From Marsupella aquatica (Eukaryota; Plantae; Marchantiophyta), in assembly GCA_973895155.1 (NCBI GenBank), contig OZ316891.1, forward strand, positions 16,393,551 through 16,457,550: a stretch of 64,000 nt of DNA, given 5' to 3'. Positions 13,095 to 55,053 of this stretch are shown in pieces; position 1 is the stretch's first letter; each line of letters opens with the position of its first letter. The translations under genes were made by a program, and so were the position numbers. The notes beneath the pieces are model-generated. The model was not told the DNA's origin. It did not search any database and worked only from the letters and a program-made list of their open reading frames with translations.

Positions 13095-13112
13095 TGGCGC
13101 CGCTGCCGGGGA
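13095..13112 (+). promoter_or_regulatory. Primer-binding site of element A (tRNA-Asp-like)
   Basis: TGGCGCCGCTGCCGGGGA, one mismatch from the Athila-type TGGCGCCGTTGCCGGGGA. Confidence 0.8.
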
Positions 13113-13329
13113 ATCCTTCTTCTTGTTTGACGACACGAAGGAGGGGAGCTACGTCTATTGGGAGTTCAAACCTATCAACCACAACGCAACTTGCGACGGT
13201 TGATACGTGAGAAGTTTGTTGGTTACTTTGTTATTGTACGTCAACCACAACGCATCGTGCGACGGTTGATGTTTACAAATATTGCTTTCTGAGACATTGG
13301 TGTAAGTTTGGAATGCAGGTCTCAATGGG

Positions 13330-19728: not shown

Positions 19729-22700
19729 CTGGTTGCAAAGGCCGATACCTTGTTAATAGTCAATGTAAATAAGCCATTTTTTAATTTTTAGTTAATTCCG
19801 TCATTATAGGTTGATGATGCCCCAGGTGACTTTATATTCTTTCTCTCATAATAGTTCTAAGATTTGCGGCGACCTAAGTGGGCAAATATTTTGGGACCTT
19901 GAAACTAGCCAGGACCAGCCCCATAGGACTTACCGTTTTGCTTCAAGAGCTATTGTTGAGACCCCCATTGCAAAGTCAGGAGAGGGGGGGGTTTTTTTTA
20001 AAATAAATCCCTCCTCAGGAGGGCGAGTCCCATTAGTGGCCGTCCGAGAGAAAGAGGGGCTGCCTCGCGAGCCCATAGGGCTGCGTGCCCGGGCGATTAA
20101 TGGGGCTCCGCGAGCTGAAGGGGCTGCCTCGCGAGCCCATAGGGCTGCGTGCCCGGGCAATTAATGAGGCTCCGCGAGCTGAAGGAGCGCAAGCGAGCGG
20201 GGGGGGGGAGTTAAAGGGCCTCCCGCGAGCTGGGAGGATCACGCGAGCGGGGGGGAGTTAAAGGGCCTCCCGCGAGCTGGGAGGATCACGCGAGCGGGGG
20301 GGAGTTAAAGGGCCTCCCGCGAGCTGGGAGGATCACGCGAGCGGGGGGGAGTTGAAGGGCCTCCCGTGAGCCGGGAGGAATGGCCGCGCGCCCTGCATAG
20401 GGCCGCGCGCAGGAGGACGCAAGGGTAAGGCCCGAGAAATGGGCCGGGGCGCATGGCGAAGGCGCCAGGAGTTTTTTCGGTTCTATTTTTTTTTCCTTCC
20501 TTTTTCTTTCCCTCTTCCTTTTGCACGACCCTCTCATTGCCGAAAGCAAAAACGGGGTTCTTCTCTCTCTTGCCGGAAGCTCTCTCCAGATTCTAATTAT
20601 TTTTGAAGCTCTCTCTTTCATGGTGGATTAGTGGGGCTTGCTGGCGTCATTCTTCCAGGCATTAGTGGCGGCCGCACGGAGTAGTGACGGGAAATTGAGA
20701 GAATTTAAGTGATCGGGCTACGGGGGCTGTTTCGGGCCAGGGAATTGACATTGCCACGGGTGACGGGATTGGTGATTGAGAAATTGATTTCGGGATGCAT
20801 GGATGCTAGATCAACCAGAGTTTAGTGCGTCACGCATTCGGAGATACAAGGCTGCTTACCGTGACTACGTGGAGACTCGGATTACACGGGAAAGGGAAGA
20901 GAGAGAAGTTATGATGAGCACGGGATTGGCAGCGGGTTCCTCACCGGTGGGTAGGAAGATTTTTCATCGAATTTATCCCAAGACCTCCACCAAGGTGATG
21001 GAGGATTGTCGGAACATTTTCCAAGCCACCGGGCTTACAGAATTCATGAAGGTGGAGATTACCATCCCTTCAGGGAAGAGCTGGGACATTGAGGCCGGGA
21101 TGGAGTTCCGAACGGAGGGAATCTACTTTGAATGTCTCAAACGTGTAGTGCCCCATGTGGAGTTGGCTAAGCTATTGTTTCTTGAGAATCAGAAATTCTC
21201 ATTCACACCTCGGAATATCAGGGGAGAACTCACGTTGAAAATGGTGGCCACTTGGGTGACCAATCCTACCTCCACCACCGCCATCCCTCTTTCTGCTGTC
21301 AAGGATGTTGAGTATAAGGGCTTCCTGGCCAAGGTGCATCAACGGGTTCTTGGCAACGTGCAATCCGGAGTGCTGAATGAGGAGCATTTCGTGGTAGCTA
21401 TGGACATCAAGAACTACCCAGCCCATGTGTACGGATGGTGGTGCTACGGATTGAAGAAGCTATTGGCCGCTGAGCCCGGGAGTGTGAAACCAGGTGGGGC
21501 TGTACATTTGATGGGGTCATTTGTATTGGCCAGGGCAGAAGGGTTGATTGGTTCTCCGGGGCATGAAGACACGGGATCATCTCTCACCACGGAGATCCGG
21601 AGTATTGCCACTACCGTTTTAGGGAAGCTCACGGAGGAATCATTGTCTGCTGGTGGGGAGGATAATAGAGAAGAAGAGAACCAGGAGGATGATTGCACAT
21701 TGGAGTGGCTTGAATCACTCGTGGGAGATCCGAAACAGCCTCTGGAATACAACATTCCGGATGTTTACTTGGCAGAGCTACGGGATTTCAGAGAGGGAGT
21801 CCACGAGGGACTCAAGCTAGTCCACGCATTGAGGGAGTCTCTCAAGCACGCCACAGTCAAAGTAGAGACGTTAGAGCAGAGCATCCTGTCACTGAAGGAG
21901 GTGATCAAGACCAAGGAGCAGACCATTCATGAGAAGGTCAGGCACATCAATGCAGCTCACGTAGAGATCACCAACTTGAAGGGAGCTTTGTCCACCAAGG
22001 CCAAGGAAGCAGAAGAAGTAGGAGCGTTGAGGCAAGCATTGGCCAAAGAGAAGCAAAATTCTGGAGAAGTGATGGAGTGGAGGAACCAGGTGGGAGCACT
22101 ACGGAGTCAGGTGGCAGCCTTTGAGACACGAGCGAAGAGAAGTGAGGCCCTGAGTCTAGGGAAACGGAAGAGTCCCGGCACACCTGGCTCCACACTTTCC
22201 CCGGATGTGATCTCCCAAGCTATCGAGATGGTGGTGAAGGAGGTTAGTGGGAAGTATGGACCCTTGTTGGATGGAGCCAAGAAGAGTCAGGAGAAGAGTA
22301 AGAGCTTGGAGAAGAAGCTCCGGGAGGTACGGAAATCGTTACGGGAGGCTCAGGTCAGTACGGGGATGCCACCCAGGTCTGTCACCCCCGGGACTCCCAT
22401 GGCCACGGGGCAAGTTCTACCGTTGGAGTTGCGGTCCGGAGAAGAGGCTACCCTCTGGAAGGACACAATTGGTGAGGGGTACATCAAGGCGTGGCAGGCC
22501 TTGGCTGCTTTGAGGAAGCGCGGGAGCAGCAGCACTAAGAGTACTCCGTCGAAGAAGAAGAAAAGTACGGTGGCACTCACTCCCGTGAGTGATGAGGAGG
22601 AGGACCACTCACGGGGCACAAGTCCGGGCACCGAGAGCGAAGAAGAAGAGGAGGATTAGATAGGCGTACGGACGTGGGTGTACGGCCTCCAGATTTCCAA

Positions 22701-23770
22701 CATTTTAGTGGGGGGTCACTCATGGGCTTGTTGGGATGAGCTCGCGGAGCTGATTCCAACAAGAGGCGGCGCTCCTCAAACGGAGCCAGGATGAGCAAGT
22801 TATGGCCTGGAGAACTTATGTTTTTGCGGTACGGAAACGGCCATAACTCAGGCGTCTGAAGTCCGTTGAGGGAGCGACTTAGTGATTCGGAAGCAGGAAA
22901 AGAAGAGCTATCCAGGGGTGAGCTCAGGTGTGCACTTGGAAGGGCACCTAGTTTCGGCCATTTTGGGGTGCCTCTCACTTTCAGGGTTCACGTGTACTGT
23001 TGGGGCGCCGTCGAAGGCACCGTCGGCCCCCTTGTTTTGGGTTTAGGGTTTTAGCAGCATGTGTGTGCCGCATGCTCCTCTTCAGTTTAAGGATTTCTCT
23101 TAGTGCAAGGTTTTAGCGGCGCCGCTAGGGTAGCCGCCACCGTTGTGACCCTGTGAGGGGTGCTTTGGTGTGATTTTTCAGTATTTAGGGGGATAGCCCC
23201 GAAGTAGTTAGGGGGACTCAGTGTGAAGTTAGCAAGGAGGGATAGAGTGGAGCCTGAGGAGTTTGAAAGCGTGTTCAGAGTAGTGAGGGGGAGCCATACT
23301 CATTGTCCGGAGAGGCAGGAGTTGAGTAGACGGCAGGAGGCCGGGTTACTCATGCAATGTGTATCGTTTTTCCCAAGAGATATGGATCTGTACATTTGAC
23401 TTGATGGGCTTTTGTTGTGTGTTCCTTCTCCCTTTTTCGCTTTCCGAATTGTGTTCTCCCGTTCTATGATTTGAAGAAACTTGCTTGGTTTGAGTCGGCC
23501 TTGTGAGTAGGGGTGGTGACAGCACTCTTTGGGTGACTCCGAGTGAAGGTGTAGTGGGGTAGTCGGCAGGACTTGATCAAAAGCTGTGGGGTGAGGGTAG
23601 TCGGTAGACTTGATCAAAACCTACATTTCCGGGAGCGGAAACCAAAATACTCATCCTGGTGTGAAAAGAATCCAAATAGCGTCCCTCCACGACCCCGTAA
23701 TACGATACCAACGGTTTAAGCGAAGAAAAGTGCGGTTTGCACGTATTAACCGTTGGAGAGGCAAGTGACA
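19693..23770 (+). repeat. 3' LTR of element A (4078 bp)
   Basis: Direct repeat of 8947-13074, followed by the TSD. Confidence 0.96.
20803..22659 (+). CDS. LTR-encoded accessory protein, 618 aa, second copy
   Basis: Same as 10107-11963 except one R>H change (IFRRI vs IFHRI). Confidence 0.8.
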   Translation: MLDQPEFSASRIRRYKAAYRDYVETRITREREEREVMMSTGLAAGSSPVGRKIFHRIYPKTSTKVMEDCRNIFQATGLTEFMKVEITIPSGKSWDIEAGMEFRTEGIYFECLKRVVPHVELAKLLFLENQKFSFTPRNIRGELTLKMVATWVTNPTSTTAIPLSAVKDVEYKGFLAKVHQRVLGNVQSGVLNEEHFVVAMDIKNYPAHVYGWWCYGLKKLLAAEPGSVKPGGAVHLMGSFVLARAEGLIGSPGHEDTGSSLTTEIRSIATTVLGKLTEESLSAGGEDNREEENQEDDCTLEWLESLVGDPKQPLEYNIPDVYLAELRDFREGVHEGLKLVHALRESLKHATVKVETLEQSILSLKEVIKTKEQTIHEKVRHINAAHVEITNLKGALSTKAKEAEEVGALRQALAKEKQNSGEVMEWRNQVGALRSQVAAFETRAKRSEALSLGKRKSPGTPGSTLSPDVISQAIEMVVKEVSGKYGPLLDGAKKSQEKSKSLEKKLREVRKSLREAQVSTGMPPRSVTPGTPMATGQVLPLELRSGEEATLWKDTIGEGYIKAWQALAALRKRGSSSTKSTPSKKKKSTVALTPVSDEEEDHSRGTSPGTESEEEEED

Positions 23771-23775
23771 CCTAG

Positions 23776-24931
23776 TAGCGCTTCAGGGAGTACCAAGGCA
23801 GGAGACAATAACAAATTTGGTAAAGTAGAAGTGACTTTCGATGGTTGGATAACTCCGAACAGTGGAGGCATTGAAGGCGCCTGTTTCTTGTAAGCAGAAG
23901 GGCAAGAAGGTCCCTAAGATTGGTAACCTGCTATGATTCAGTAGTTTACATTTGAAAAGTGCATGGAGTTTTGTGAAGCTTAAGTTGTGAAAGGTAAACT
24001 TTTCTGTACGAACTAGTTGGAAGAACAAAATCTGAAGTGACATCATGATTGATGTATTAGGTGATTCAAAGACAAATAATCAGAAAGATGGGCCCAGTGC
24101 CTCAGTGACCATAGCCAAGGAGGTATCAGGTAAGGTAAGCTTATGCTTTAAATTCCTCTATATGAATGTTGTGAGACAATTCATTAGTTAATAGATTCAA
24201 CCTGAATATTGTGGCTGTTCATAATGGTAAGGTGATAGTGACAACTTTGTGGTTGGTCACATGTACATTTAGTACATGTGATTAGTGATTGACTTATGTT
24301 GGATAATGCACTGAATTGTAGTTGATGCAGACTTGACAGAGTCTCAACCAAGTGGGAGCAAGGTGAAGCGAGGTCGGAACTTGGGAGCAACATTGGATGT
24401 AAGTAAGATTGTAGATGCTTCAATTGAAGCAAGTACAATGTTGGCAGATACTGAGATCATGTCGCAGGGAAATCCCGCTACACAATCGGCAGTGTCAAAT
24501 ATGGATGCAGATTCTTTGAAGAAGAGTGTCCCCAATTCTTGATCACTAGCACAAAACACTCGTGCCAAAGTGATGACTCGCAACCAAGGTATGAACAATG
24601 TCATGTATAAGTCACCCAAAAAAGCCAAGAAAAACAGCCAGGGTAAGGTGGAGGTGATAGCCACAGCAGAGCCAGTCCATAATCTTCTATCATGGGAGGA
24701 TGACTCACAGGTATGTATGGGTACAGGCATTTTGCGACCAGATCATGCTAAATTCCATGGCAAAGTGGTCCCAGATGACCATGTAGTAGTGTTGTTGACT
24801 ACAGTCATTGTATCTAATTGTAATTTGCCATTTCTGAATAGAGCAGATGATCCACCTCATGAAGTAATTGCAAATGAAATTATAGGATCTCTTGTGCTCT
24901 AGCCATCAGAGTGTGTTTGTCTCCCAAAGTG
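23776..24931 (+). pseudogene. 3' exons of the CACTA TnpA-like gene
   Basis: The terminal exon FHGKVVPDDHVVVLLTTV..LPF..IIGSLVL*P resembles the C-terminal domain of En/Spm TNP1-like proteins; GT-AG introns upstream. Confidence 0.55.
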
Positions 24932-27242
24932 ACTGAATGCAAATGTAGATAGAATCATGTGAATTGTGTTACATTTTGATATTGCCTTGGAAAGATCCAA
25001 GAAAGACATGTACCAATTTTGAATTTGGTAAAGAGGATGAAAGAGCCGTTGTCATTATGTGTGACATGTATATTTTTGAATTCTGTGTGTATGTATGAAA
25101 CAAGTGATTGATGTCAAACTATGGCTATATGGTGATTGTCTATGATACTTGAATATGTTTTGTATCATTTATGATTAGTGTGTATGGTATAGAAGAATGC
25201 TTTGTGACCTATCATGCTGGTCTATGATGTTTGAATCTGTCCTTTCATATTAGTGTACATGGTATAGAAGAATTGAAGGCTTTATGAAACTCTATGTGTT
25301 CTAATGTTAACATGGTGAATGGTGAGTTTATAGAGTGAGTATACACAAAATAACATGAATGGAATCATGTGTTATTTGTGCACAAGAATGAGGTAGTATA
25401 GCGGGGACATCACTCATTTCCAGTTGACATTCAGAAAGACTTATACATACCCCACAAAGTATCTCCTTTAGTCGTTTTATGTGATGCCTAGCCAGGAATC
25501 ACTCGGCCAGTTAAGTGGGTAAAGCAGGAGTGCACCCTAGAAACACCTTAGTATAGGGACAAAACAAGGAAAATATAAACAATTAGGGGCGACTATGGAA
25601 CCCGGGCCGAGGCCGGAGGTAAGGACGCTAGGGGTGAAAACAAGATTAGGGTTAGGGCGCGCTAAGCATCGGCAGCTAGGAAGGATCAATGGGAGAAAGG
25701 ACCGGAAGAGGAGAGGGGTAAGGAGCGCTTGCAGGAGATGGTGGCTCATTTGCGAGCACAAACTAGGCAGACGACTACGGGAGGCCAACTACTGTCAGCT
25801 GCTTAGGCAAGCACTCGGGGAGAGAGTAGATACCGACGATCGACCTAAGGAGGGTATGAGCAACGTCAATCAAGCGGCACATTTCTGGGGATGCCTGTTC
25901 AAACGGGCAACTGAGTACATCAAGACTTACGAGGACGAAGAACCAGAAAGGGCAGCTCGAGAACGACAGGAGCTCGCTCGATTGTGGGAGCTGCAGAAGA
26001 CAGCTTTCTTAGGAGGCGAACTCATCAAGGCCGAGTTCTTGTGGACTCCTACTTCCAATCAGCTTGACGATCTTCTGTTTTGCGAAGACAGAATCATCGG
26101 CATTCGAGAGGCCATCAAGAATTGCAACGACATACACTAGGAATTGAAGGGTAGCACGGAAAGGTGGACCCAGGCAACGGTGCTAGGAGAAACCTCCACG
26201 GTAGCCGAGATGAAGAGGAAGGAGCCGTCAACGATGAAGCCACCCCGGCAAAAAGAACAAGGTCGGCGGCACCAAAGAAGCCAGCCGAGCAGCAGAACAG
26301 GAGGCAGGGAGAAGCCGAAGAGGAGGAGGTCGATCCCATCAATGCCATTCCAACCAGGGATGACACCTGGAAGGGCTGGGCGGCAACCCTACCAGCGGAG
26401 GTGCAACTACATTTTGCACGGGAGGAGGATGCATGCTTTACGGCCATGCAGACCAAGAGGTACCAAGGCTTCATGGCCGGATCCGGCTTAGAGGCCTTTG
26501 TAAGATTACCATGGCTGAAGCCGGGTATAGCAGTGGAGACAGGAAACAGGAAACAGTTTTCCTGTTACCAGGTAATTTCTCCTGGTAACAGGAAATTGTT
26601 ATTGTAAAAGTGTACTATTTGGCAAAGTTTTTCTAAAATTCACGTAAGGAACAACCACATACTTAAGCTAAAAATATTCCTACTGGCATAAGACACGATG
26701 TCAGATCTAAGGGAAAAGTGTGCTCACAGTTGCTCGGAGAGGTTCCAATCCATTGTCACTTGCTCAGATTATAGATAAAAAAGGGTTGTCATTCAATTCA
26801 CTGTTGTTTAAATACAACAACATTTCTAAATAGTCCACTTTTAAATGCTTCATTTAGTTCATATACTTCATTAGTGTGGTTAAAAAAAGGCTAACCATAA
26901 TACCCATGGAGGAATGGAGTATGCTCAGGCGAGACCCACCACAAAGCCAGTTGTGGACTGAATTATGTTATCGGAAACATAGGGGTCTGTCAGGCAGAGT
27001 GTGAAACTAGCGCCAGGCGCTAACAAAGGATTAAGTACGCAGAATAATGGGACGATAATAAAAGCTTATGGAACCATCCAATGGCAATAACCACAAAAAA
27101 CAAAATTTTATAAATAAGTTATTGACCAGCGCCCGACGCTAACCAAAACCACATAAAAAACTAAAGTAATATCCGTTGACTAAAGACAAAACAACATAGT
27201 ATCCGTTATGGAATACGATAGTTAAGGATAAATCGTGTCCCT

Positions 27243-30200
27243 CTATAAACCATTTGCGTTGTGCCTCTCCAACACAAGTCTGACTTCTCCAACTGTCAAA
27301 ATCGGCTGGCTACACAGGGTAGACTCCTCTACATGAAACTTGAAGACATTTATGAACACCCAGTACAAATGTTTACAGGGCATATACGGCTTGCCGCGGG
27401 AATGACGACGAAAGAAATCCTCACAGGAACAAGTAGGGAAGATGCACATTTGGACAAAGTAAGTGTTTGGCGATCGAAGGTTCTCGTGAGTCCGTATTCT
27501 GAATTGTTTCCCATAAGCAATTCCACTAATCACATCCCACTCTCCATCCAGAGTCATAGCTTCTTTTCGAGCCGACTCCATTCGTTTACTATGAGCCACA
27601 GTTAGATTAGAGCGAGGTCTGGAGTTCCTCCCATTCCTGCTACGAAGGCGCACGTTGGGCTCCGAAAAATTGATTTTCTCTGGAAATGTGTTAACATTGA
27701 TTCTCAAGTCGAATGCAAATGGTGCAGTTCGAGTTCGAGAGGGCGTAGCTGTTTGGACCATAGAGACTCCCTGTGCTTGAAGGTACTCTATCTCTCCAGG
27801 CGAAAGGTTTGTTCCTTTCACAACTGGCAGGATGTCCGGTACAGGAGGAAGGCGTTCAACACCACGACGCGGGCGGCTCTTGTAGCATGTGCTGTTTGGG
27901 CAGAACCATATCATTTCGGCAATGGGAGTTCCTCTGAAAATCCGATGTCCGTTGACAACAATGCCGACAACACCGGCAGCAGAATGCAACCCTATTTTCT
28001 TGACACAATTTCGACACTCATCTCTGTCAGAATTTCCATGCAAGGTCCCATTACACTGTGGCCCTGCCCCATATTTGGCCGTCCGTCTCAAATGCCAGCT
28101 TCCTCTTGGAACGTCCATTTCCAATGGAGCTAATTCTGCCGGCAAACGTTGAACCACAGCGGGGGCATTGCGTGGTTGTTGAGATGATGTTCTTTCCCTC
28201 GTGGCTTCAGGGGTGTTCGCAAGGGAATCGCTTTCACTTGTTGAAGTGTCACTCCCGCAGAGGTCTACTACAGGATCTACTACATTGGCGGGAATGGAAG
28301 TGAACTCAGTCTTGTTGAAATTCTTCCGTTTGAATCCTCGAGTATTTGGGGTAGTGATGAGAATGGTGTCATGCCGATGGGAGTCTTGTGGCGAGACAAT
28401 CCCAGTTGCAAGTCCCTTCCTCTTAACCGATTTGGTGACAATATCTCCATTCAGAGGAGAATTCCTACCCAGATCAAAATCGGCAGAGTTGGAAAGAATC
28501 ATGTTAGTGGCTTCTTCGAATAACTTGGGTGAACCTGCTTGGTCTGCCGAACGGAATGCCAATTCCCAGATAGTTGGCCCCTTCCCTCTATTGAGTCCTT
28601 TCCGATATGCACTGTAACCTGCAACTTGAGATATAGCCCGATTTTGATCAACTTCGCATGCTTCGAAGAGGCCCACCATTTTTTTGGTTGCCCATGCTTT
28701 CATTGAAGCGTGCCTTGACTCAGAACCTGTACAGTTTGGAATGAGGGCACCTTCTTCTGTGCTTTTGCTCTGCAATGAAGTGGATCCAGACCAACTTTAG
28801 TCAATTTGTTTAAGCAGCGCCAGGCGCTAGCAATGTATATAATATATATTACGGTAATGTTGGTATTATCAAGTGTTCATAAGTCATGAATGTGGCAAAG
28901 TTCTCTGTACAATTTAAAGTAGCGCCAGGCGCTAGCATTGTGTATGATGTAATAATATAATGTTGGCATCTGTACAGTTAAAAGCAGCGCCAGGCGCTAG
29001 TAAAAAACCTGGCGAAGTGACTATTGTAAGCATTGATAAAACTTACCACGCGAATGAAATTCCCCCACTGACGCCATCGAACGACCCACCATGATATCCA
29101 ACTCTGCAACATCATTAGTTTCCCTGGAATACAGTTGCCTGCTTGCCACCATAACACAATCTCCCTAGAAACTCGGTACGCAGCAACGAATGATGGAGCA
29201 TTTTGCAATTTCTCCCACAGTCTTAGATGTTCAGGTTGCCTACCCTCGAGTACTCCCTCGGTGGAATGTCGATGGAAAGACTGGTAAAAGTGGAATGCAT
29301 CAGAGCGTTCACGTTCAGGGTCTGGGTGACCCCCAAAAAAGACATTGCGAACGGCAATCCATCCAGCCTGAGCATTGTCGGCCATAAAACCTTGAATGGT
29401 AACCTCATGTAACCCATTTTCCTTACAAACCTCTATCATAATTCTCCATGCCTTCTCAAAGGACTCTGTGTCTTCAGCTTTTAGTTCGCATGTGAATATT
29501 GTACAAAGAGCTCGAAAGTTGTGATCGTAAACGTGTGCGCTAAAAGTAAACCAGTCGGTTGTCACTCGCTTCATGACATCAAAACTCACCCAAGCCCCTT
29601 CCAGTCTTCCGCCAGGTTGCATCTGACGTAAAAGATCTACACCAGATCCATGACCCTTCACTGACATTTTGAATATGTGGGGACGATCTGCTAAACAACC
29701 CTGACCCGGAAGAAGATACCTTTGGAGAAAAGAAATATTATTTGACCTTTGCATTCGAGCTAGGAAATCTAACTCACCACGACCAGCCTGGTCCATTCGA
29801 ACGCTGCGACAAAGGGACGCAAATTTCTGAGGAGTAGATAGAACCATGAGAGACTTCCAAATTTCGGTTTCTTCAATATCTACGATGTCGTCAACGTTCT
29901 CGCAAAGAGCTTTCACAAGCGAACCAGTCGCCGAATTCAAAATCCCAGCCGGTTTCGCAAGAGGATTAGCTTTGTGATTTCTTTTTATTAAGTCCTCGGC
30001 CATCTTTTCAGCACTCCTCGAGAAAACTTTTCTACTCGGATGATTATGTTCACCTATATGTACCGCGAGCCGAGACATGTGACTACAGGTTGTTGTATCA
30101 AGTAGGACCTGTGGATACATATAGAACAAGCGAGCAGGGCAAGAGTCCACACAAAAAGGAATCTTTTCATAGTAGTGACATACTATACCACCCTCTTCAA

Positions 30201-31035
30201 TGAGCGAACCCACCACATGCTGGCCACTAAGCTTAGGGGTACCAGCCCACGCTTTAGAATTGCATCTCTTCTTTCGCAAAAAATATTCACAAGAATTGTT
30301 CCTGCACTCGACAAACCCAGTACAACTGACTTTACCAAACTCCCAGTGTTTCTTTGGTTGCACGTTTACGGTCGTCGGAAAAATCCTGGTCCAAATGTAA
30401 CAATCTTTGGCACGATCCATGTCACGAAGTCTAGATCCTTTGGACTGCATTCCCACAATGGGAGGCAATTCAAATACAATATTTCCGTTGTACTTGTTTG
30501 GCAAACAAGGAACTTGATCGTGTCTAAAGTCCCCTGCCGACATAAATCTTGACAATTCACTATGGCCGGTGGCCTTGAGTAAGGCGTCCATTGCACTCCG
30601 CCTGTAAACCTTCTGGACATCTGCAGTGGAAGTGGCCACCGGTTCACTCTTAAGGCAACTAGAGCTTGGAGCTTTGTGCTTCTCAGGAGGATTGGGCGCA
30701 ACTTCCTCATCTTCACTCTCAGATATTTCAACAACCTGGGGCGGAATGTCCTGAACAACCGATTGAAGAGGAGTAGGTCTGACATGAAGCGTGTAACGAA
30801 GTCCTACATTCATGTGCCAGAAACATATTCCGTCATCCACATCAAATGCCGCAGCTGGTTCATGTCCTCCACTCGATGACTCCTCAGGAACAATCGACAG
30901 AATGTCATTGATTCTCAAATCGAATCTCCCGCACAGATAGTTCTCGCTTACTTGCCTGTAAGTATCAGAAACCTGCACGGGAACTTTGATGACTTCCCGG
31001 GTACAAGCACGTGTAATAACAATTGAGCGCGACAT
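27243..31035 (-). CDS. Mutator-like transposase, ~1171 aa, 2 exons (31035-29047, 28769-27243)
   Basis: GCM/WRKY-like Zn domain (CTGFVECRNNSC..CPARL..GEHNHP); candidate DDE residues in SFDVMK, MADNAQ, GSESRH; DAFH at the CxxH position; C-terminal SWIM (CSCEDF..CKHL). A phase-0 GT-AG intron joins the two ORFs. Confidence 0.82.
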
Positions 31036-31961
31036 TGTAGACGAAAGAAGTTTAGGGCAGAAGTAATTCATGCAATAGCCCAATCCCAACCGTATTTCTT
31101 GTGCTTATAACACCCCTTCGAGGACCACCGGCCGTTGAAAGAGACGTTTCAATACGACATAGAACACGCACAACTTTGCGTCCGTTGAAATCATAAATGA
31201 TACATTTGTCGTTTTTTCCCGTCAAGTGTGGGTGTCAGGAATATTTATTACATGAATACGACTAGATAGTAGTCTATACAAGTGCGTCCATTTCATTAGC
31301 GTCGGGCGCTACCTAAAAGCCATTGTAATAACAATGACATAATTTGAAAAGTATTATGACTAGCGCCTGGCGCTAGCATAATTACACACGAAATATTTTT
31401 GCAAATATAGTAAAATTTTACTAGCGCCAGGCGCTACTATTGATACAATAAATTTAATCTCATAATATTAAGTAAAATTTGGTTACTACAGGTGAAACAG
31501 GTACATTTAGGAGTTTGTTGACAATATATGTTGCTTAGAAAGAATGTTAATGAAATTATTCAAATGGCTAGCGCCGGGCGCTAGCATTTGTTCACCAATA
31601 AGTTCTTCAATTTGGTAGTCTCTTATTCATTAGCGCCCGGCGCTGGCATTGCATGTTTGTCCGCAAGGTGTTGAGACAACGGTAACTTTTAACGGTAACT
31701 AATGTTCAACATGATTATCACGCAAACATTTTAGCGTAGTTCACATTAATACTTATCGCAATTTCTAAGTTGTCGCTTTCCGTCACTAATAAATTAAATT
31801 GAATCTTGTCGTTCGCAATGAGTAACATCTCTCCAACCGATTACAAAGAGGGGAATAGCGCTCATTGATCGGATATAATACGGACGCAACTGTTAATATG
31901 GTACGGAGAATTGGTAATTAGTTGTGAGGATTCCGTTCGTACACCTTTCATCGTAAAGACG

Positions 31962-34900
31962 ATGGATGCAATCCCCTCCTCGTCGAGGGGGTATAGTGTG
32001 GTTGGGGATCAGGATCGTGGGTATTGCGAGTCTTCTGAGTCTTCATTCTCTGGTTCAGTGTATACACGTCGAGTAACGAGGTCCACCGCATCGCTTGTTC
32101 GAATCTCAAGTATTTCGTTTGCCAAACCAGCGAGAAAGAAGATGGAGAATCTTGACACATTTGCAATTCAAGATGTTTCGTTTTCCGAGACGGATCTTAT
32201 TTCAAAACATGTCATGTCGTTTGGGAAGGATTTCAGAGGGTTTGACAAAGAGCCTCCGCGAATTCCACTATGTCGATTGGTGCATATGGAGGTTGTCCGA
32301 ACTCTACAGAAAGACAGTTCTTCCATCGACAAGCTAAAAGACTCTTTCCGTAGCATGGGATACAATTCTTCGATTGGAATGAGGTTTTACGTTCAGCCTA
32401 CCAATGCTGAGGGAGCGCTTCTCACCTGTACTCAAGAAATTCATGAGAGTTGGGATCCAATATGGACATATGAGAACGAGAAATTCGAGGAAGAATGTGC
32501 TGCCGACCCAGATTTTCTAGTTTTGAAAGACATAATGTTCTCAATTTTTGACGGGAACCATAGGCTTTACTCGTGGACTCTTGTCACTCAAGAGAGTCCC
32601 GAAAACCCAAAGTACCACCCGCGTGTGCTTTGTACTATTTTTAATGGTGACAAGGGTTCTCTGATAGAAATTGAAGCGGCTATGCACACCGTTAACCAGT
32701 AAGATACCCTTTTGTGCAGAACTTCGTGAGTCATTATGAATTGTTCATTCTTTCTAGCATAACTTTTTGAGGCAATTTTTTGCTAGCGCCCGACGCTGCT
32801 TATATGTTCTCATTTCGTTCTTTTATTTCAGGCTAGGACAAGCAGTTGTGGAACCCTCCTGGATCCTAGATGCCGATCGAATTAAGCGGGTCTTGATGCA
32901 CGACCTGGAGTACTATAGTAAGCTCATCGACCCTGCAAATTACAAGAAGTTTGAGCAGATCAAGGTGAAGACGCGAAAAGGATCCTGGTACACAAAGAAG
33001 ATGCCTCAGGAGGCTCTTTTGTACATTCTATGTCAGGATAAGATTAAGTCGTATTCGAATCAGTTCAAGATTGACATGGAGTCCGCTGCGACCCTCGGTA
33101 CCCCTTGGTCGGTCGAGGAGGTTTCCAGAAGGCATGCCGTTATGATGAAGGAAGCAACCAAGGAATGGGCAGTTAAGACCTCAAAAATCACTCCTTTGTT
33201 GAGTCCAGAGTTTGAGGACTTTCTATCTATGTGCGCAGAGATGTATGCTATCACGGAGAGGAATAAGCGAGAGAAGAAACCAGATACCGTGTTGTGTACC
33301 ATGGACCAGGCCAGGCTTTTTACAGCTGTTTCGGCTCTTGACGCCAAGCTACGAAGTACTTTGCTTGTAGCACATTGCAATCCGGAGCTCCGGAGACAAT
33401 TCTTCCATCCGAATAGCGTCAATGATGATCCAGTCAAACAATGGTGTCACACTTGGATTACATGGAATAATGTAGAAGGGATTGCGGTGGGGATGTTGCA
33501 ATGTGCTCTACGAGAGGTCCAACAAACCATTCCCGTGAATCGCTTACAAGATTGGGCATGTGAATCATTCGAATCTCTCATTGAAATAGTTACGAATGAT
33601 TTTAGGAAATACGGTGACTCTGTCAAGGGTAAGTTTTTTAATACAATGTGGCCCTCGAAGTATCCTGACAAAGAGGATTATTCTTTGAAGAACCAGAAGC
33701 GAGCAAAACGGTATCTCTACCGTTTTTACATCCACATGGAGGCTACCAATCCTGATTACTGTTGGGCGTATCCCGCAGCCTTCCTCAAGTGGACTGTCAT
33801 ACCGGAGAGTAATTCTTTACTTGAATTGTATTCTATGTATCCTACCGAGGGAATTTTCCCAGCAAGACCTTTGAGTGAATGGGAGAGAACCCATTGTCCA
33901 TGGTACCTGGATACAGATAGATGGGACTCTCCCTTTGATCACAGAGAAAAGGATGCTTTCCATAAGCTGTCTAAGTCCCAGATTCCAGTCAACGTTGTTT
34001 CTGACATGAAGCAGGGGCTTTTGGATGATGTGGATCAATCCACAACAGAATTGCAAACAATATGCGAGACAACAATTGTTCATGTTGACCGAAGCAGGAA
34101 GCCCCGCGCCAAAGCAAAAGCAGATACTACGGCCCCAAGTGAATCAACAAGATCTGGGAAAAAACGTAAGTATAATTTGTTTCCTTTGGTTAGCGCCCGG
34201 CGCTGCTATGGCAGTCAATATCTATCAATATCATTTGGTTAGCGCCCAGCGCTGCTTATGTCCAAATTTGTTACATTGTTAGCGCCTGGCGCTGTTATGA
34301 GAGTCATTGTTTTAGAAATAGAATTGGTATTTATTACTCGGAAAGATGTATATTTAAGGCCAAGTCTTATGATAGTTTGGCCAGCGCTGGGCGTTAGCAT
34401 TGTCGTTGTCTCTTTATTGACGGATATCACGTCGACATCCATTTGAACAGGAAGAAAGTCGGACGCCGTGGGGAGCGGAGATACAAAGATAGATGCCACC
34501 CCAGAGGCTTCAGAAGCCAATACCGGAGCACCATCCGATCCAATTACTCCCACCAACAAAGGGAAGGCGATCGCTCCAGTGGATGCTACCAGTACAAGGA
34601 AGAAGAGAAAAAGGACCATTGAAGGTGGATCTTCTTCTCGAGAAAGTGCTGCTGCTGTAGGTCTTCAACGCGAAGTCGGGGACTTCAAGAGTAGACTTTC
34701 AAGGCATTGCCTTGTTGAATCTAGCATCTCAGAATTCTATGACTCAACGTTTAACAAAGGGGAGAAGCCTGACAGGGTGAATGGTGTAGAGAAGTGGGGA
34801 AAGGATCTCATGAAGTCTGGCTTTCGAGAGAAGGGCGTTGTGCGTGGTGGAAAGGAGAGATCGTTTGGGGTCCACGCGGGTTTCATTTACCTTCCAACAG

Positions 34901-35810
34901 GACTTAAACCATCTCTGCTAGACAGAAAAGTTCCTAAATGGAATGTCCCTGACCACACTTTGGCCACATCTTTCTTTCGTGGAATGGACCCATTTTTATC
35001 TGATGACGGAATGCTGGCCATTTTACATAACGGGGAATACGATCCGATGTCTCAGGTTATATCGGCTTGTCAAGATTCAAAGAAGTTTCATTGCATCTCG
35101 TCACACAATGTTGTCATGTCAGTTCCAATGTACGCGCCGAAGACTGATTGACAGGTAAATTTCTCATCGTGACATCTGGTTTTCCGTTAAAAAATTGTCT
35201 ACAAATGCATCCATTGACATACCTTGCTTGGGTTATATTACAGATCTTCACGCTGAGGCTGGACGTCTTCTCTCGACTGTCTGAAAAAGGGAAGGTGCCA
35301 AAAGACTCAAGGTTTAGACCTCTGTCTGCCACCGAAGATCCCTCAATAACAAATTTAATTGGACTTCCCTCTCTCAAAGTTGATCCAACACCTGAGATGG
35401 AATTTGCTGGAAATGCCCGATTGTCTGTTGGATTCATGCAATCTATGATTGAGCTCATCACTCGTCCGAGGGATATTTTCATGGATTGGACAGTGGGGTC
35501 GGGCAGCTCTTTTGTAGCTGGAGACTATTCTGGGAGGTTTGTAATTGGAGTGGAGAATAGAAAAGATTTCGTTGAGACTGGTTCCAAGGTGTTCTTAGAT
35601 CTACTTTCTCCAAAGGAAGTCGAAACTTTGCCACCCCCAATTCAGCCACCCGAAAAGAAAAAGAGGGACAAGCTCCGTTCTGTACTCAATTTTGACTCTG
35701 ACGATGAGTCAAGTGGTGGTACAGCAGACGAAGATGAAGATGGCACACCTGAGGGGAAGGGTCAGGAACAATCCGCTGGCCAGAGTGACAGCGATGACTC
35801 TTCCGAGTAA
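31962..35810 (+). pseudogene. ParB/Srx-like domain + amino-(N4C/N6A) DNA methyltransferase-fold fusion; 4 exons, one in-frame TGA at 35149
   Basis: Exons 31962-32698, 32832-34165, 34451-35154 and 35244-35810 splice in frame. FDGNHRL (ParB-like); FLSDDGMLAIL and MIELITRPRDIFMDWTVGSGSS..GRFVIGVE (beta-class MTase motifs VI, X-I-II). Confidence 0.75.
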
Positions 35811-36207
35811 TGTTCTGAAACTCGTAAGCTTCTTTTTCCTTTCCAGTTCCTTCATGGCTTTGTGATATCCATTCATACAATCGGTTGACGAACTTTTGTT
35901 CTCACCCAGGTCCGAATGGAATACGAGAAGACGCTTCAAACTCAGAAGAAAGGTAGCTCGTTTTGAAATTGTCACTCCGGAGAAACCATTTGTGTTACCC
36001 TCTTACGCTGAGAATGCTGCAAGAATGGAAGACAATCAGAGGACTCTTTGTTGGGAAAACAAAGGTCTCCGGCTACGAAGAGGAGTTGATAGGAAATTTG
36101 TCTGAAATCCTTATGTAGACGACGTTTGTAGGAGCAAGTATGTAGATGATGAGGCGGTCTCTACCGAGAGGTCACAGAGCTCCGAATCGGAATCGTCCGA
36201 TTCTTAA
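35810..36207 (+). pseudogene. Small spliced gene 3 of copy 1 (~105 aa, unknown), two stops
   Basis: Homologous to 54043-54457 (SEWN.RRRFKLRRK..PFVLPSYAE..LCWENKGL.LRRGVDRKF); intron 35824-35909. Confidence 0.6.
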
Positions 36208-36623
36208 AGAGTTTTTTTGGCTTACATTTTACCAGCGTCGGGCGCTGTTATCTTAATCCATTTATTTATCATATTACATATGATTTGTTTACATTACATT
36301 GATAATAAAATGGATTAAATTCATTATTTCCCTTACTAGCGTCGGGCGCTCCCCAAACATCTATTTTTCTACTTGCGAATTTTGAATCCTCCGTCCGTTC
36401 CTTGGCCCCTCATATTTTGTCGCTCTCGGAACAGTCGTCTCTTTCTCAACGGTCCTTTTTGCGTTGAACCTTTCTGTGATACGTTTTTTCGGATCTCCGA
36501 ACCTAAACTCTCCATTGGGTCGCTGTTGCAAGGTATTTCGAACACAACCTCTCTCGAAGTCGAGTCTTTTCAACACCACCGGTCTTGTCATTAGCTTCGA
36601 TTGCGTTTACCAGTGCCCACCAG

Positions 36624-37093
36624 ATGGAGAAGAAGGAGATCATGTCTTTGGAGGAGATGCTTGCCTTCTTTGCTCCTTCCAAAGTTCGACCGGACGAGAG
36701 TCACTTTAGCTCCTTCGAGTCCATTCATGGTGACACATCCAGCGAGACCTCGACCTTCCGGAATCGTTTTTCTCTTCCTTATGATGAGGCGATTAGTCCC
36801 GGGGAGAGGAACTTACCTTGGATTAATGACCGGGACACTCCGCTCGCAGTTGTTGATCGTTTTTTGTTTCATTCTCTCGTTCCTGCTGATGGTATTCAGC
36901 CTATTGAGCTATGAGTACAAGAGCGACTGGGACGTGTTGACTTCCTAGATACAAATGTTCCAGACCTCGGGAATCAGAGTTCGGAGTTTCGGCGCCCCTC
37001 GTCTTCTTATGTGCGTCTCAGGGGTCTAGGTTTCAAGCAAAACCACAGACATGCCAGGGCGGGCATCGACGACGACTGCCAGTCGCAGAGCTA
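36624..37093 (+). pseudogene. Gene 4 of copy 1 (~155 aa, unknown), one stop
   Basis: Homologous to 55054-55515 (ESHFSSFES, ETSTFRNR..LPYDEAISPGE.N.PWI, YVRLRGLGFK, DDDC). Confidence 0.65.
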
Positions 37094-40000
37094 AAGTTAA
37101 TCATGATGGAGATGGTTTCAGTGACACAAGCTTCAGTGGCCATAGGCTTTCCATTTAAGCTAGTGCCGAGCGCTGCTTTTGTTCGTCTTAGACCGTGGGA
37201 TTTCTTCTATGGGTGATTCTAAGTTCATGTATTTCCGGCTCCATCTTTGGCCCATTTTGGATCAGCGGCCCTGTTATGTGCGGCTCAGGTCGAGTTAAAG
37301 CACATACGGGCCAGGGCGGGCTACATTTAACATAGCTAGATTTTAGCTAGCGCCGAGCGTTGCTTATGTTCATGTTTTTCCGTGGGTTGATTTGAAGATG
37401 ATCTGCGGATGGTGTAATACCGGTTATATGTTTTGACCAATTTTGGAATTAAGGAATGCACTTTTGGATCGGCTCTCTTGTTCTTTCATGGTCATTCATT
37501 GATTCCTAGATTTGAGCTAGCGCCGAGCGCTGCCTATGGTCATTGTGTTCCTTGTTTAGACGTTGATTTCTTGAGGTCCGACATTTAATGTAGCGGCCAT
37601 CGCTGAAAATATTCAACGTCTGCCATTGCCTCTGTTTGTTGGAAATGCTTCAAATTGAGTTTCCTGTGTTCACTTCTCGATTGATGTGACGGACAATCTC
37701 TTCCACCATACTAGCGCTGGGCGCTGCTAATATCCGCATGTTTTGGCAATGCCTTTTTCTATTGGTCGTTAAGTTTACTGTTCTCTTCTCGATTGACGTT
37801 ACGTAGAATCTCCATCTTTTTCGTTATTTTATGAATACCTAAATTTTGCCCTTCCCTGCCGACATACTACCGTTGTGCGCTGGCCATCACCGGTTTTCGG
37901 CAACACCTTTATTCTAATGGCCCCTACTTTCCTTGACAATTGGATGGTGGTATTGAAAACGACTGAAAATGGGGTTTATTGATGGGTTTTTTTTAACTTA
38001 TTGACCAAATAATGGAGCTCAATCCCATGTTCTTTTTTCCATTTCTCCTGGTAACAGTAACTGTTTGCTGTTACTGTTTCCTGGTTCCTGTCGTTTGTAA
38101 ATACCCCGCTGAAGCCGGAGGTACCGGATTCAGACCTATTAGAATTCGTGGGGTCATGGGAACCCGAGACCAATTGCACGAGGATATATGGGAAGGATTT
38201 CTATCTTACTCCCAAGGTGATTGCCGAAGTGTTTGGCTTGCCGATAGGCAATAAGACCAAAGTTGATACCAGGAAGACCTTGCCTGACAAGGAGTTCCGG
38301 TCGTTCCCCGGGCCATCAACGAAGAATGGCTTCTTCTGGAACACCTGCACCAACCCGCACATAGGAGAGATGATCGACTTCTTGCGGGTGACCATGCATT
38401 GTAACTTGCCGAGGGCAGAGATCGGCAAAGCACAGGTCTATCTGGCAGAGAGGCCAGACCCAAGCCGGGACTACAATGGGTACCTCCTCAACCAATTGAA
38501 GAAGATCTTAAAGGAGGAGCAGCAGGTAATCGGCATGGGGAGCGTGTCGCGGCTTGGCTATCACATGCCGCTGTTGTGCCGGTATGCCAGAGGTCAGACC
38601 TTTGCCCCAGTACTTCCCCTGCAGGTAAGGGCACCCGAGGAAGCTCCAGCACCGAGGCCGGTAGTAGAGAAGCCTCAACCACCTGTTAGCCCTACGATTG
38701 AGCAGGTGTTTAGGCCAAGGAAGGAAGACTTGCAGATGCAGCAACCAAGCATACAGAATCTGCTGAAAATGCTGGAGAAGGAAAAGATGGCACCGGCTTC
38801 GACAGCAACACCAATACAGGACACTGCCCCAGAGATCAACCTAAGCAGAATCAGGCCAGAATCCAAGCCGGGTGTTCGAATGTACATGGGAGTCTCAAGC
38901 TCTGAATCTGAGGTAGAATTGCCTGAAGCTCCTATCGACGAAGAAGAGAGGGAGAAGCCGGAAGTCCAAGAAGTAGAGGAGGCAGTGGAGGACTGCAGCC
39001 ATGATAACTCCGGCTATGGGTCGGACCATCACGTTCCAGGAGTAAGGACCTGTGGCCGGTTTATCCCCACACTTCCAAGGGTAGTACGAGGGGACCCCAA
39101 CCAGTAGAGTAGCCCTGAGTCTCCCCCACCAGATATTGCTCCCCCGAGCTTTGACAGCATAAAACAGACGGCGCAGGAATTTCAGGAGCGAATCAGGCAG
39201 GAAGAGAAGGCAGCCCTGGCTAGGGAAAAGGATTTTCCAGGAGGAGATTGGCCGGAGGACATCAGGCGGCTAGCCGAAAAAGGAAGCAAACCTCTAGCCA
39301 CGATTGAAGAGATCCGCAAGACGGCTTGGGAGCAAAGGCCGCGATGGGCGATGCCGATCACTTCTACTTATTCCACCTACGCTAAGAATAGAGCCATGGA
39401 GTATGGTGAGATGTGTGGGGAACTTGTGCTCGGCATCTTTGGGGAGGAGTTGGAGGTAGGACCCTTTTTCCATAGGGAGCAGTTGGAGAAGCACCAATTA
39501 GAAGAAGCGGTGGCTTTAGAGAGAAGCAAGAAGGACGAGGTCATCCGGCGGCTTAGGAGGATGGAAGCCGAGATTGAAGATCTAAGGGCGACCAAGAAAG
39601 CCCAAGATGAACTGCGGATTAAGCGGCATGAGCTGAACATCATGCAGGGGCAGTTGGACACAGCGCAGGCTGATAATCAGATTATCAAGGATAAACTGAC
39701 TTAGACCCAGGGAGAATTGGCCGACGCAATCAAGGACAGGGAGAAATGGAAGAAGGAGTTGAGAAACGCAGAGGAGGCCCATATAGCAGTCAACAACCGG
39801 GTCACGGCGGAGACTCAAAGAAAGGAATGGGCGTTGAAGGGGGAGCTCGAGAAAATCCACGGAGTCCTTGAGCAGAAGGAGGCCGAGTTAGGGAAATCCT
39901 ATCAAGGGATTATTGCGCTACAGCAGGAACTTGCGTCCCTGACGGCCAGCTTCAAGGCCGACCTGCGGGAGAAGGACGCCCAGCTCGACCAGACTTATGC

Positions 40001-44700: not shown

Positions 44701-45670
44701 GTGGATTTTCTGCAGGCGTTGTGGCAGAGCCGACGGGGTCCACAACGCCATCGATCATCGACAAGGAATTAAATACCAAGGGATCGGCATACAGGCCGAT
44801 TACGAGGGCAGAACAAATTGAGGCCCTATTAGAAGCCGGGAGAGCACAGCGGCCTGACCCTCAGGAGGAAGAGGTGGATGAGATGCACAGACAGAATCCA
44901 GAGTCAAGGCAGGAAAGAAAACCGACTACCAATTCAAAACCGAATAGGCCGGCAAGGGGTATGATAGTCACAATAGAAAACAAAAAACAGAAAACCTGTT
45001 ACCAGGGGTTTATTTTTTGTTAACAGGGAAATTGTACCTGTTACCAATAAGCATGTCCCTATTACCAGTTTTTCCTGAACCATGACGTGCATATCCACCA
45101 CTCTAAGGTGCATATCCACCACTCTAATGGCATAATTTTTTGGGGGGCAATAAAGTTTAAAACAAACAATTATTTTGTGCCATCCGATGGATGAAGTGTA
45201 CTATCAATCCTCCATTGACACAACAATTTATTGTAGAAGATAAAAAAACATGGTATTAGGAGTGTGCCTAAAGAAACATTCATGCAAATCAATCTATTTT
45301 CATCGCCAAATAGTGACCCTTAGAGTGGGACCCACCATAGCACATGTCAATCGTGGAGTCCAAATGAACCCAATCTAAAGGAGTTGATTAAATGGACCTT
45401 GGAACGTCACAAACAAATGACAAATCACATCCTCGAGGCTTTGAAGACAGTAGACAATTTAATCAACTTACACATTTTAAATAAAACAAGAGGTCATTCT
45501 TCCACAACGCACGTACATAATGAAGCAATGAATATCCGGTTTCCTAGAACCAGCGCCCGACGCTAACCAACAAAGTCTCAATAAAACAACTAAAATATCT
45601 GTTGGAAAAAGACAAAATAGGGAATAACCGTTATATTGAACGACGACCTATTGGGCAGTTTCGATCTCTC

Positions 45671-48600: not shown

Positions 48601-49406
48601 CTGAGCTTTGGAGTACCCTGCCATGCCTTAGCATTTGCCTTCTTCTTCCTTTGGAAATAGTCACAGGACTTGTTCCTGCATTCAATGAATCCCATACAGG
48701 TAACCTTCCCAAACTGCCAAAGGTTTTTAGGATGAACAGTTGCAGTTGTTGGAAATATGCGTGTCCAAATGAAATAATCTTTGGCACGATCCATGTCCCT
48801 AAGCCTAGAGCCTTTAGAGAGCATCTTATCAATGGGCGGCAACTCAAACACGACGTTACCATTGTACTTAGTTGGCAGACAGGACACTTGTTCATGCCTA
48901 AAATGACCCGCTGATATGAACCGTGACAACTCACTATGACCAGTTGATTTGAGTAACGTATCCATCGCACTACGGCGGTACACGACCTCCAACTGCTTAG
49001 AGCTTCCCGGAGTCTCAACTTTCACGACAGCAAGGAGCGGGCTTTTCTTCTTCGACGGTGGACTTAGAGTACGATCTCCATCCTCACTTGAAGAAATCTC
49101 AACCACATCACATGGAACCGGCGGGAAACTGGACAGTCCTGCATGCTGTCTTAAACGAACCGAGTACGAGATCCCTGCGTAGAGATGCCAAAACCGTTCA
49201 CCGTCATCGACATTGAACGTTGCAGCATCCTCGATATCATCAATGGATTCAAGCTCTCGAACAATGGCCTCAATGTCATTCATCTTCAAATCAAATCTCC
49301 CGCAGAGATACCTCTCCCGGACCTGCTTGTACGTATCTTCCATGGGGATGGGGATAGTCACAATATCTTCAGAACCGAATCGAGAAAGAACGATAGACCG
49401 AGACAT
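45671..49406 (-). pseudogene. Mutator-like transposase of copy 2 (frameshift ~48350, AG>AA acceptor at ~47201, stop at 46520)
   Basis: Collinear with copy 1; same GEHNHP, SFDVM, MADNAQ, SDAFH, GSESRH and SWIM motifs. Confidence 0.85.
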
Positions 49407-54905: not shown

Positions 54906-55053
54906 ATGGTCGTTTCGGAATGGTAGTGTACGCGGACCTTTATCTGGCGTCTTAGTCTTCGCGGACCTTTCTTTGACCTTTGTCGGCTATAGCACTCGCG
55001 GATGACGTTCTTACGGGAGGAGAGGTTACATATTAGATCGGGATCTTTGGAAC

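Follow-up and report, generated by a model that had tools for sequence, protein, structure and literature searches.

A ParB- and methyltransferase-fold accessory gene with a dispersed candidate binding palindrome in two probable Mutator-like transposons of the liverwort Marsupella aquatica

Introduction

Several transposons have been described in which sequence-specific recognition of the element by one of its own proteins has been found or proposed, and they are summarized here as far as the passages of each report that deal with them go. In the VANDAL anti-silencing system of Arabidopsis, VANC proteins bind motifs that are specific to each family and lie in introns and other non-coding DNA of the elements (PMC5735166). 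In the brown alga Ectocarpus, the element Sola1-1_Ec32 carries, opposite its transposase, a gene for a 1104-amino-acid (aa) protein that joins ParB to an N4C/N6A methyltransferase (MTase), for which self-binding and self-modification were proposed (PMC12477816). [quoted passage not shown] A helix-turn-helix of the ParB type was found fused to Dam-type MTases of chlorophytes, which are of another class, and ParB-terminase loci were described in phages (PMC4738411). Finally, the AtMu1 transposase of Arabidopsis activates cognate copies alone and in a sequence-specific manner (bioRxiv 10.64898/2026.08.24.746577). Here, we analyzed a stretch of 64,000 nucleotides (the window) of the liverwort Marsupella aquatica (GenBank assembly GCA_973895155.1, contig OZ316891.1, positions 16,393,551 to 16,457,550 of the forward strand), in which two DNA transposons, E1 and E2, each carry an accessory gene with a ParB fold and an MTase fold together with many copies of a short palindrome. 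Judged from its sequence, the locus is a variant of this recently proposed transposon accessory system, with a putative function in self-recognition.

Results

Palindrome sites

E1 occupies positions 26523 to 38107 (11.6 kb) of the window and E2, which has an E1-like layout, positions 44957 to 56224; a non-autonomous miniature element of 366 bp with ends of the E1/E2 type lies at 6472 to 6837 on the minus strand. We counted the 13-bp core of the palindrome, AGCGCCNGGCGCT, allowing up to 2 mismatches, and a 15-mer allowing up to 1 mismatch. The 15-mer had 20 matches against 0.03 expected, and none of 100 shuffles reached 20. The core was found 38 times in the 64 kb, with 21 matches in E1, 16 in E2 and one in the miniature element, and no match in the roughly 41 kb of the window outside these three. 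Although two thirds of the sequence of E1 and E2 is coding DNA, none of their 37 core sites falls within it (P values of 1.7e-10 and 1.4e-8). The non-coding cores of E1 span 27009 to 37725 (27009, 27128, 28816, 28921, 28986, 31298, 31362, 31423, 31570, 31632, 32785, 34192, 34241, 34281, 34383, 36234, 36338, 37162, 37349, 37519 and 37713). Conservation extends past the letters used for the search, since position -3, which is beyond the core, was a purine in all 76 half-sites, and position -1 was a pyrimidine in 72 of the 76. The extended consensus is RCYAGCGCCNGGCGCTRGY, with A+T-rich flanks.

The genes of E1 and E2 are about 72 to 76% identical, and most of the non-coding parts do not align. 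The identity of the palindrome-bearing intervals (0.58 to 0.67) was near that of shuffled controls (0.52 to 0.63). Nevertheless, the palindrome was retained in all seven non-coding intervals, with E1/E2 counts of 5/5, 3/2, 1/1, 4/2, 2/2, 4/3 and 2/1. The densest cluster, with five sites per copy, occupies the interval from which the transposase and accessory genes diverge, and the introns of both genes hold sites, which reach as deep as 5 kb inside the element. The flanks of the sites are unrelated (mean identity of 0.37 over 703 pairs), with the exception of the pair 37349/37519 (identity of 0.65). From the sequence, this pattern of retention is that of a selected, if putative, protein-binding site. 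An original prediction, made from the letters of the window, had described many parS-like palindromes in arrays within both elements. These interval and flank comparisons support selective retention in the non-coding DNA of both diverged copies, and the many sites are indeed confined to the elements, but the word array does not apply, given that the sites form dispersed clusters with unrelated flanks and that no tandem array over them was detected in the window. All 21 mismatches within palindrome sites were C>T or G>A, a pattern that would fit the decay of methylated cytosines.

Accessory gene

In E1, the accessory gene is on the plus strand and has five exons with canonical GT-AG splicing, for a total of 1211 codons interrupted by two TGA stops. 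Exon 1 (31962 to 32698) encodes a ParB/Srx-fold domain with a DGNHR motif, exon 2 (32832 to 34165) a conserved domain of about 415 aa that belongs to no known family and is the candidate DNA-recognition part, exon 3 (34451 to 35154) a linker and the N-terminal half of an amino-MTase fold with the motif IV IYLPTG and an in-frame TGA at 35149, exon 4 (35244 to 35806) the C-terminal half of this fold with motif I (DWTVGSG) and an acidic tail, and exon 5 (35910 to 36207) a YVDDEA motif and one in-frame TGA. The E2 gene has four exons (50371 to 51122, 51247 to 52580, 52771 to 54039 and 54148 to 54457), with a 4-nt deletion and stops, and is missing intron 3 of E1 (35155 to 35243; 53470 region of E2). 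The first E1 stop is not typical of the family, because in all four public runs about three quarters of the contig depth, at least, reads C instead of T at this position. The values over 1203 codons between E1 and E2 were a pN of 0.135 against a saturated pS of 0.79, and the pN per domain ranged only from 0.10 to 0.18 (0.145 for the MTase fold). At the level of sequence, this shows purifying selection on the whole accessory protein.

Of the two small genes that the original prediction placed downstream, only one stands. The first (35910 to 36207) is exon 5 of the accessory gene, because both copies conserve its splice acceptor, the join is in frame and the product matches the C terminus of Riccia proteins. 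This exon includes a conserved acidic motif near the C terminus of the protein, [FY][IV]DDEA...LSS (36100 to 36170), which eight stored proteins match and which we take to resemble short chromatin-factor or SUMO-binding motifs. The remaining small gene, of about 156 codons and no family, is at 36624 to 37094 on the plus strand and has one TGA in E1, whereas its E2 counterpart (55054 to 55515) is open; 49 of 82 residues are identical between the two. Its product may work together with the ParB protein. Library searches with this third gene and with the middle domain gave no match.

A HMMER profile of exon 1 matched 240 clusters among 1.84 billion representatives. Among the listed matches that reach the end of the profile, 42 of 75 terminate within 3 residues of that point, which is what a conserved intron 1 would predict. 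We examined 30 of these proteins, picked from 150 listed matches with a preference for long ones, and found 16 from the liverwort Riccia sorocarpa and 5 from the fern Adiantum; none of the 21 named matches examined was algal. One Riccia protein of 1207 aa (P0153) carries both the ParB and the MTase domains, and all 26 matches to its MTase part were Riccia proteins encoded on several chromosomes, a pattern of expansion in keeping with a mobile gene. Relatives of the accessory gene are therefore, by sequence, present in a liverwort and in ferns. When the middle exon was used in a word-seeded search for longer proteins, nothing was retrieved from 4694 candidates, a matter of sensitivity, since HMMER later found such proteins. 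Scans of viral and of prokaryotic genomes gave one weak DGNHR match each, and a pattern of two palindromes was found in no viral contig. Five loci came from a metagenome scan, and two of them (L001 and L002), both short, are true members of the family.

ParB and methyltransferase folds

The model of the N-terminal domain has a predicted local distance difference test (pLDDT) score of 91.9. Foldseek matched it to bacterial ParB, Noc, KorB and PadC and to sulfiredoxin (best E value of 7.6e-3, probability of 1.0), and in a wide VIA search of 48,161 chains all 11 matches with a Z of at least 2 were ParB/Srx-fold proteins. The CTPases ParB, Noc and KorB ranked first, with Z values of 7.3 to 8.3 (root mean square deviation [rmsd] of 2.3 to 3.5, 91 to 104 residues aligned), versus 4.3 to 6.2 for Srx, SerK and SbnI; the top match had a Z of 8.3 with an rmsd of 2.3 over 91 residues. 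Phage ParB proteins headed the ranking in a viral library. Sequence searches were far less telling, as Pfam on 79 members gave a single DndB match (E value of 0.028), NCBIfam a DGQHR match (E value of 0.18) and PDB none. Nevertheless, the modeled structure shows a ParB/Srx fold in the N-terminal domain, and the ParB match of the original prediction is confirmed by Foldseek, the wide VIA search and the CTPase ranking.

Three parts of the domain are conserved within the family (numbering of the 186-aa domain): R53 in 67 of 72 sequences, the four positions of GNHR in 73, 78 and 74 of 79 and in 65 of 78, and N185 in 65 of 69. The alignment with KorB stops at model residue 186, equivalent to KorB 147, which places N185 on N146 of KorB. 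According to the passages on this residue, N146 is required for cytidine triphosphate (CTP) hydrolysis and clamp closure (PMC11790492). On the basis of the model, a nucleotide-dependent clamp role may be inferred for the domain. In language-model features, the nearest clusters to the ParB domain (32142 to 32699) were those of fungal DUF3723 proteins (0.95) and one in which ParB_N accounts for 11% (0.91), hinting that DUF3723 may be a ParB-fold domain. DUF3723 proteins are cargo of Starship elements. A literature search on DUF3723 together with ParB found no paper.

Regarding the C-terminal domain, exon 4 matched PF01555 (E value of 1.6e-4, under the cut-off) and M1.HpyAVI (E value of 2.3e-4), as well as NF010253 and phage methyltransferase families. 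A low-confidence model of the Riccia MTase domain (pLDDT of 50.5) was matched by Foldseek to CcrM (E value of 8e-7), METTL3 and M1.HpyAVI, and in the Atlas this domain adjoins phage PF01555 clusters (0.95). The order of motifs is permuted, with motif IV before motif I, in two stretches collinear with CcrM. Together, the matches to PF01555, M1.HpyAVI, CcrM and the Atlas clusters show a beta-class amino-MTase fold, as had been predicted. The S-adenosylmethionine (SAM)-binding motif I is kept, DWTVGSG or DWTAGAG being aligned with DPFMGSG of M1.HpyAVI. The catalytic motif IV, (D/N/S)PP(Y/F/W), is not: both window copies have YLPT, all 15 Riccia rows that cover the motif (of 18) have D[LM][PS][ST], and two Adiantum proteins have DVPF and DFPI. 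The change of SPPY to APPA abolishes the activity of N4CMT, as its report states for this mutant (PMC8885841). Because the altered motif IV is catalytic in amino-MTases, the MTase of the window lineage has likely become a pseudo-enzyme that is retained for binding, to judge from its residues, while fern members may be active methyltransferases. The idea that the protein marks the element by methylation is thus unsupported in its original form, given that the Asp of motif IV is lost in both window copies and the aromatic residue in all 15 Riccia rows.

A related contig with another palindrome

L001 is a metagenome contig of 1.9 kb that is 61% identical in the ParB exon and was sister to E1 and E2 in a FastTree phylogeny of ParB domains (138/166 sequences, branches without support). 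It has an intron of 817 bp (336 to 1152) at the same position as intron 1 of E1 and E2, in which the window core has no match with fewer than 3 mismatches. Instead, AGCY-N4-5-RGCT occurs 19 times in this intron, versus a mean of 0.47 and a maximum of 4 in 500 shuffles, and is absent from the L001 exons. Generic palindromes with 5-bp arms number 52, against a mean of 10 and a maximum of 21 in 200 shuffles. Palindromes of the forms AAGCC-N4-GGCTT and GAGCT-N4-5-AGCTC recur with a period of about 20 nt. L002 ends inside the first intron and shows no motif. In sequence terms, the swap of palindrome in L001 is what the co-evolution of a protein and its site predicts, in one case.

Transposase and element structure

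The E1 transposase is encoded on the minus strand by a spliced frame of two exons (1171 aa, no stop). The first (29047 to 31035) has a Cys/His-rich N-terminal part, the conserved Asp motifs SFDVM and MADNA, and DAFH; the second (27243 to 28769) has GSESRH, with the putative catalytic Glu, and a C-terminal SWIM-like finger, CxC-x15-CxH (Pfam SWIM E value of 0.022, under the curated cut-off). The E2 transposase (49406 to 45674, minus strand) has one frameshift and one stop. The Cys/His-rich part, the two Asp motifs and DxFH are conserved in the 10 homologous proteins returned by our search, among which there was no Riccia or fern entry. The order D, D, DxxH, SES is, we presume, that of Mutator transposases. 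For the catalytic domain, there was no Pfam, NCBIfam, PDB or plasmid match. Target-site duplications of Mutator-like elements (MULEs) are 8 to 11 bp long in the relevant part of a published account (PMC6446971); those of E1 (9 bp) and E2 (8 bp) are within this range, and that of the miniature element (just 5 bp) is outside it. Long terminal inverted repeats (TIRs) were not found, as the ends match each other over no more than 6 bp and have, apart from this, a subterminal inverted repeat of 20 bp, which is compatible with non-TIR MULEs such as VANDAL. From their sequences, E1 and E2 likely belong to the Mutator superfamily, so that the predicted affiliation agrees with motif order and duplication length, though not with any library match to the catalytic domain.

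The window is a nest of long terminal repeat (LTR) retrotransposons, with gag, zinc-knuckle and pol-type frames, interrupted by the two 11-kb insertions. E1 begins with GGGTAT and ends with ATACCCC, and its duplication, GCTGAAGCC, is found on the plus strand at 26514 to 26522 and again at 38108 to 38116. The pre-insertion target has an intact copy at about 63675 to 63685 of the window, and the empty site, with 26513 joined to 38108, was present in contigs from three of the four public runs. E2 is flanked by the 8-bp duplication CCGGCAAG. Short subterminal repeats of the ACAGGAAAC / CCTGGTAACAG type lie at 26538 to 26616 and are mirrored at 38041 to 38092; they are common to E1, E2 and the miniature element and differ from the palindrome. 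The two insertions are thus independent and diverged and share one layout, with the ends, palindromes, transposase, DGNHR domain and amino-MTase fold located as originally claimed. E1 represents a multi-copy family, because the contig pieces of mixed identity that cover it, from two organisms, number in the thousands.

The ratio of observed to expected CpG was 0.84 to 0.85 in E1 and E2 versus 0.64 in 7000 to 26500, coding content being uncontrolled in both figures; the higher value is compatible with partial protection of the elements against methylation decay. Elsewhere in the window, two direct repeats of 4.1 kb (8947 to 13074 and 19693 to 23770), 98.7% identical and with internal tandem repeats of 47 and 64 nt, are likely the LTRs of a young retroelement. 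Purine-rich degenerate repeats of 13 to 16 nt are found in E2 only (54690 to 54900), 5' of the third gene.

Discussion

A self-recognition model

Self-recognition of the element by its accessory protein, in some form, is quite probable to us, and by analogy a VANC-like role would fit. A more specific version, whose chances we put slightly short of even, is that a dimer of the accessory protein, with its ParB fold and likely inactive MTase fold, binds the palindromes of its own element and shields or activates the copies against host silencing. The steps of this model can be arranged by decreasing confidence. We are most confident that RCYAGCGCCNGGCGCTRGY would be a protein-binding site. Its binder would be the accessory protein, probably acting through the 415-aa middle domain. 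The ParB domain would then bind a nucleotide triphosphate as the switch for loading and spreading, and about 20 sites over 11 kb could coat the whole element. The MTase fold would still bind SAM and DNA, as a binder or shield rather than a writer in the window lineage. Least certain is the last step, a net effect of anti-silencing such as that of VANC.

Several observations weigh against this model. Z values of 7 to 8 are only middling by the tool's own note, the ParB fold is also found in enzymes without DNA clamping (Srx and SerK), the phosphate-binding motif is GNHR and not the GERRxR of ParB, and the N185/N146 register is given by alignment end points only. For the middle domain, no Pfam or PDB match points to a helix-turn-helix or another DNA-binding fold. 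The MTase was modeled on a Riccia homologue, with low confidence. As for L001, the change of motif comes from a single contig that stops short of the transposase, its pattern was chosen by eye from the same intron, and the repeats are tandem-like, with their 20-nt period, and possibly an inserted element. Finally, the transition-only mismatches of the sites and the CGA-type stops in both accessory genes fit host methylation of these copies, and therefore any protection would be at best temporary.

Alternative explanations

The main rival is activation driven by the transposase. According to it, the palindromes are transposase sites, used for end synapsis or activation, and the ParB-MTase gene either has its action at other places or lacks sequence specificity. 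The miniature element has no gene and keeps a perfect palindrome (6636, with a decayed copy at 6658), which is equally consistent with a transposase site, and in some contigs the sequence skips from a palindrome straight to the right end of E1 (28934 to 38061, 29007 to 38046 and 37369 to 38048), suggesting further non-autonomous derivatives that retain an end-adjacent site, the first two pointing to more gene-less ones. Besides, the AtMu1 report, in the part concerned, credits the transposase alone with activation of cognate copies. However, the ends of the elements bear subterminal repeats of their own, which are different, the palindromes are found far from the ends and within the introns of both genes, and, in the red-algal account, ParB genes accompany inverted repeats in elements of another transposase superfamily. 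On balance, we regard this explanation as unlikely, though to be taken seriously.

Slightly less likely is that the protein does bind the palindromes but for transposition or self-limitation, either as a bridging or compacting clamp or as a KorB-like repressor of the divergent promoters. The position of the densest cluster between the divergent genes would suit such a repressor, and KorB, among the best fold matches, is a sliding-clamp repressor that acts from a palindromic operator, as the pertinent passages of its report describe. However, such a role would explain the MTase fold and the intronic sites no better than anti-silencing does.

We consider it improbable that the accessory protein binds the palindromes as an active writer of N4-methylcytosine (4mC) or N6-methyladenine (6mA), with an atypical motif, and marks its own element. 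The beta-class fold with motif I retained, the strong purifying selection on the MTase domain, the Asp kept in all 15 Riccia rows and the DVPF of one Adiantum homologue would all favor a writer, as would the self-modification proposed for the Ectocarpus protein (PMC12477816) and the eukaryotic 4mC writers known, from the accounts at hand, in bdelloids and Marchantia. Against this stand YLPT in both long-diverged window copies, the aromatic residue missing from every Riccia row, and the loss of N4CMT activity reported for APPA in place of SPPY (PMC8885841). That a host factor recognizes the sites, or that local duplication produced them as a neutral side effect, is very improbable. The one pair with shared flanks (37349/37519) is outweighed by unrelated flanks in nearly all the others, the absence of matches from the remaining 41 kb or so of the window and retention across saturated divergence.

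Significance

The hypothesis shifts because the methyltransferase looks catalytically decayed and is conserved all the same. A ParB-type clamp that loads and spreads on plant chromatin would be a new route to sequence-specific epigenetic control. For a test of this idea, the locus offers a candidate site that is well delimited and visibly selected, a conserved protein in which the residues to mutate can be named, a sister family whose different site can serve to control for specificity, and relatives from a liverwort and from ferns. A broader proposal, which we hold as speculative and on the whole doubtful, is that a widespread class of transposons in non-seed land plants has adapted a ParB-parS system of phage or plasmid type for self-recognition in a eukaryote. 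In this scheme, a nucleotide-switched sliding clamp would load at family-specific palindromes and spread over the whole element, the pseudo-MTase would help, as a shield or reader, to block host silencing by 5-methylcytosine, and protein and palindrome would co-vary by family. If true, a ParB-type DNA clamp would act on eukaryotic chromatin, and VANC-like anti-silencing would have a second, independent origin.

Comparison with known systems

The closest likeness is with Sola1-1_Ec32, given that in both cases a single protein of about 1100 to 1200 aa, ParB-like and with an N4C/N6A MTase, is encoded by a large DNA transposon on the strand that faces its transposase gene. The comparison is by published description. 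The algal element differs in belonging to the Sola superfamily of a brown alga, with a 4-bp target-site duplication, whereas that of the window is Mutator-like and has land-plant relatives; neither a cognate palindrome nor catalytic decay is mentioned in the passages that describe it. The red-algal Plavaka elements also have a ParB-like accessory gene beside inverted repeats and an N6-MTase (PF01555) in the same element. However, as these are described, ParB is fused to the 2OG-oxygenase and the MTase to SET, while in the window ParB and MTase form one protein, and the Plavaka repeats are tandem arrays adjoining PAG3, while the window sites are dispersed over the whole element.

With VANDAL and VANC, as reported in the sections concerned, E1 and E2 share a Mutator affiliation (a probable one for E1 and E2), an accessory gene and a dense, family-specific short motif in non-coding DNA and introns. 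VANDAL motifs are 8 to 9 bp long, in the same orientation and spread by tandem repeats, unlike the 13- to 19-bp palindrome of the window with its unrelated flanks, and the accessory protein of the window has prokaryotic-type folds, for which no likeness to VANC proteins is claimed. Compared with the ParB, KorB and Noc clamps, the N-terminal fold, the conserved Arg, the GxxR-type motif, a palindromic site of similar length and, going by alignment end points, the C-terminal Asn are in common; the window protein departs from them in having GNHR for GERRxR, a long insertion, the MTase fusion and no ParA. The beta-class amino-MTases (CcrM, M1.HpyAVI, phage PF01555, N4CMT and DN4MT1) have the same permuted order and motif I, but the window motif IV is not D/N/S-P-P-Y/F/W, and bdelloid N4CMT has a chromodomain. 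Marchantia DN4MT1 and bdelloid N4CMT were rejected as equivalents on their described architecture, which is another one; the word ParB occurs 0 times in the text of the DN4MT1 preprint.

The original prediction knew of no description of the combination. However, the sources cited already report the ParB-MTase of Ectocarpus Sola1-1_Ec32 and, in Plavaka elements of red algae, ParB genes next to inverted repeats. A literature search on ParB with Mutator, DUF3723, Riccia and liverwort or fern, with most subscription journals and Repbase outside its scope, returned no land-plant description. The novelty of this locus lies in its land-plant setting, in a host element that is Mutator-like, in a candidate site with sharp definition and in a methyltransferase that is likely dead.

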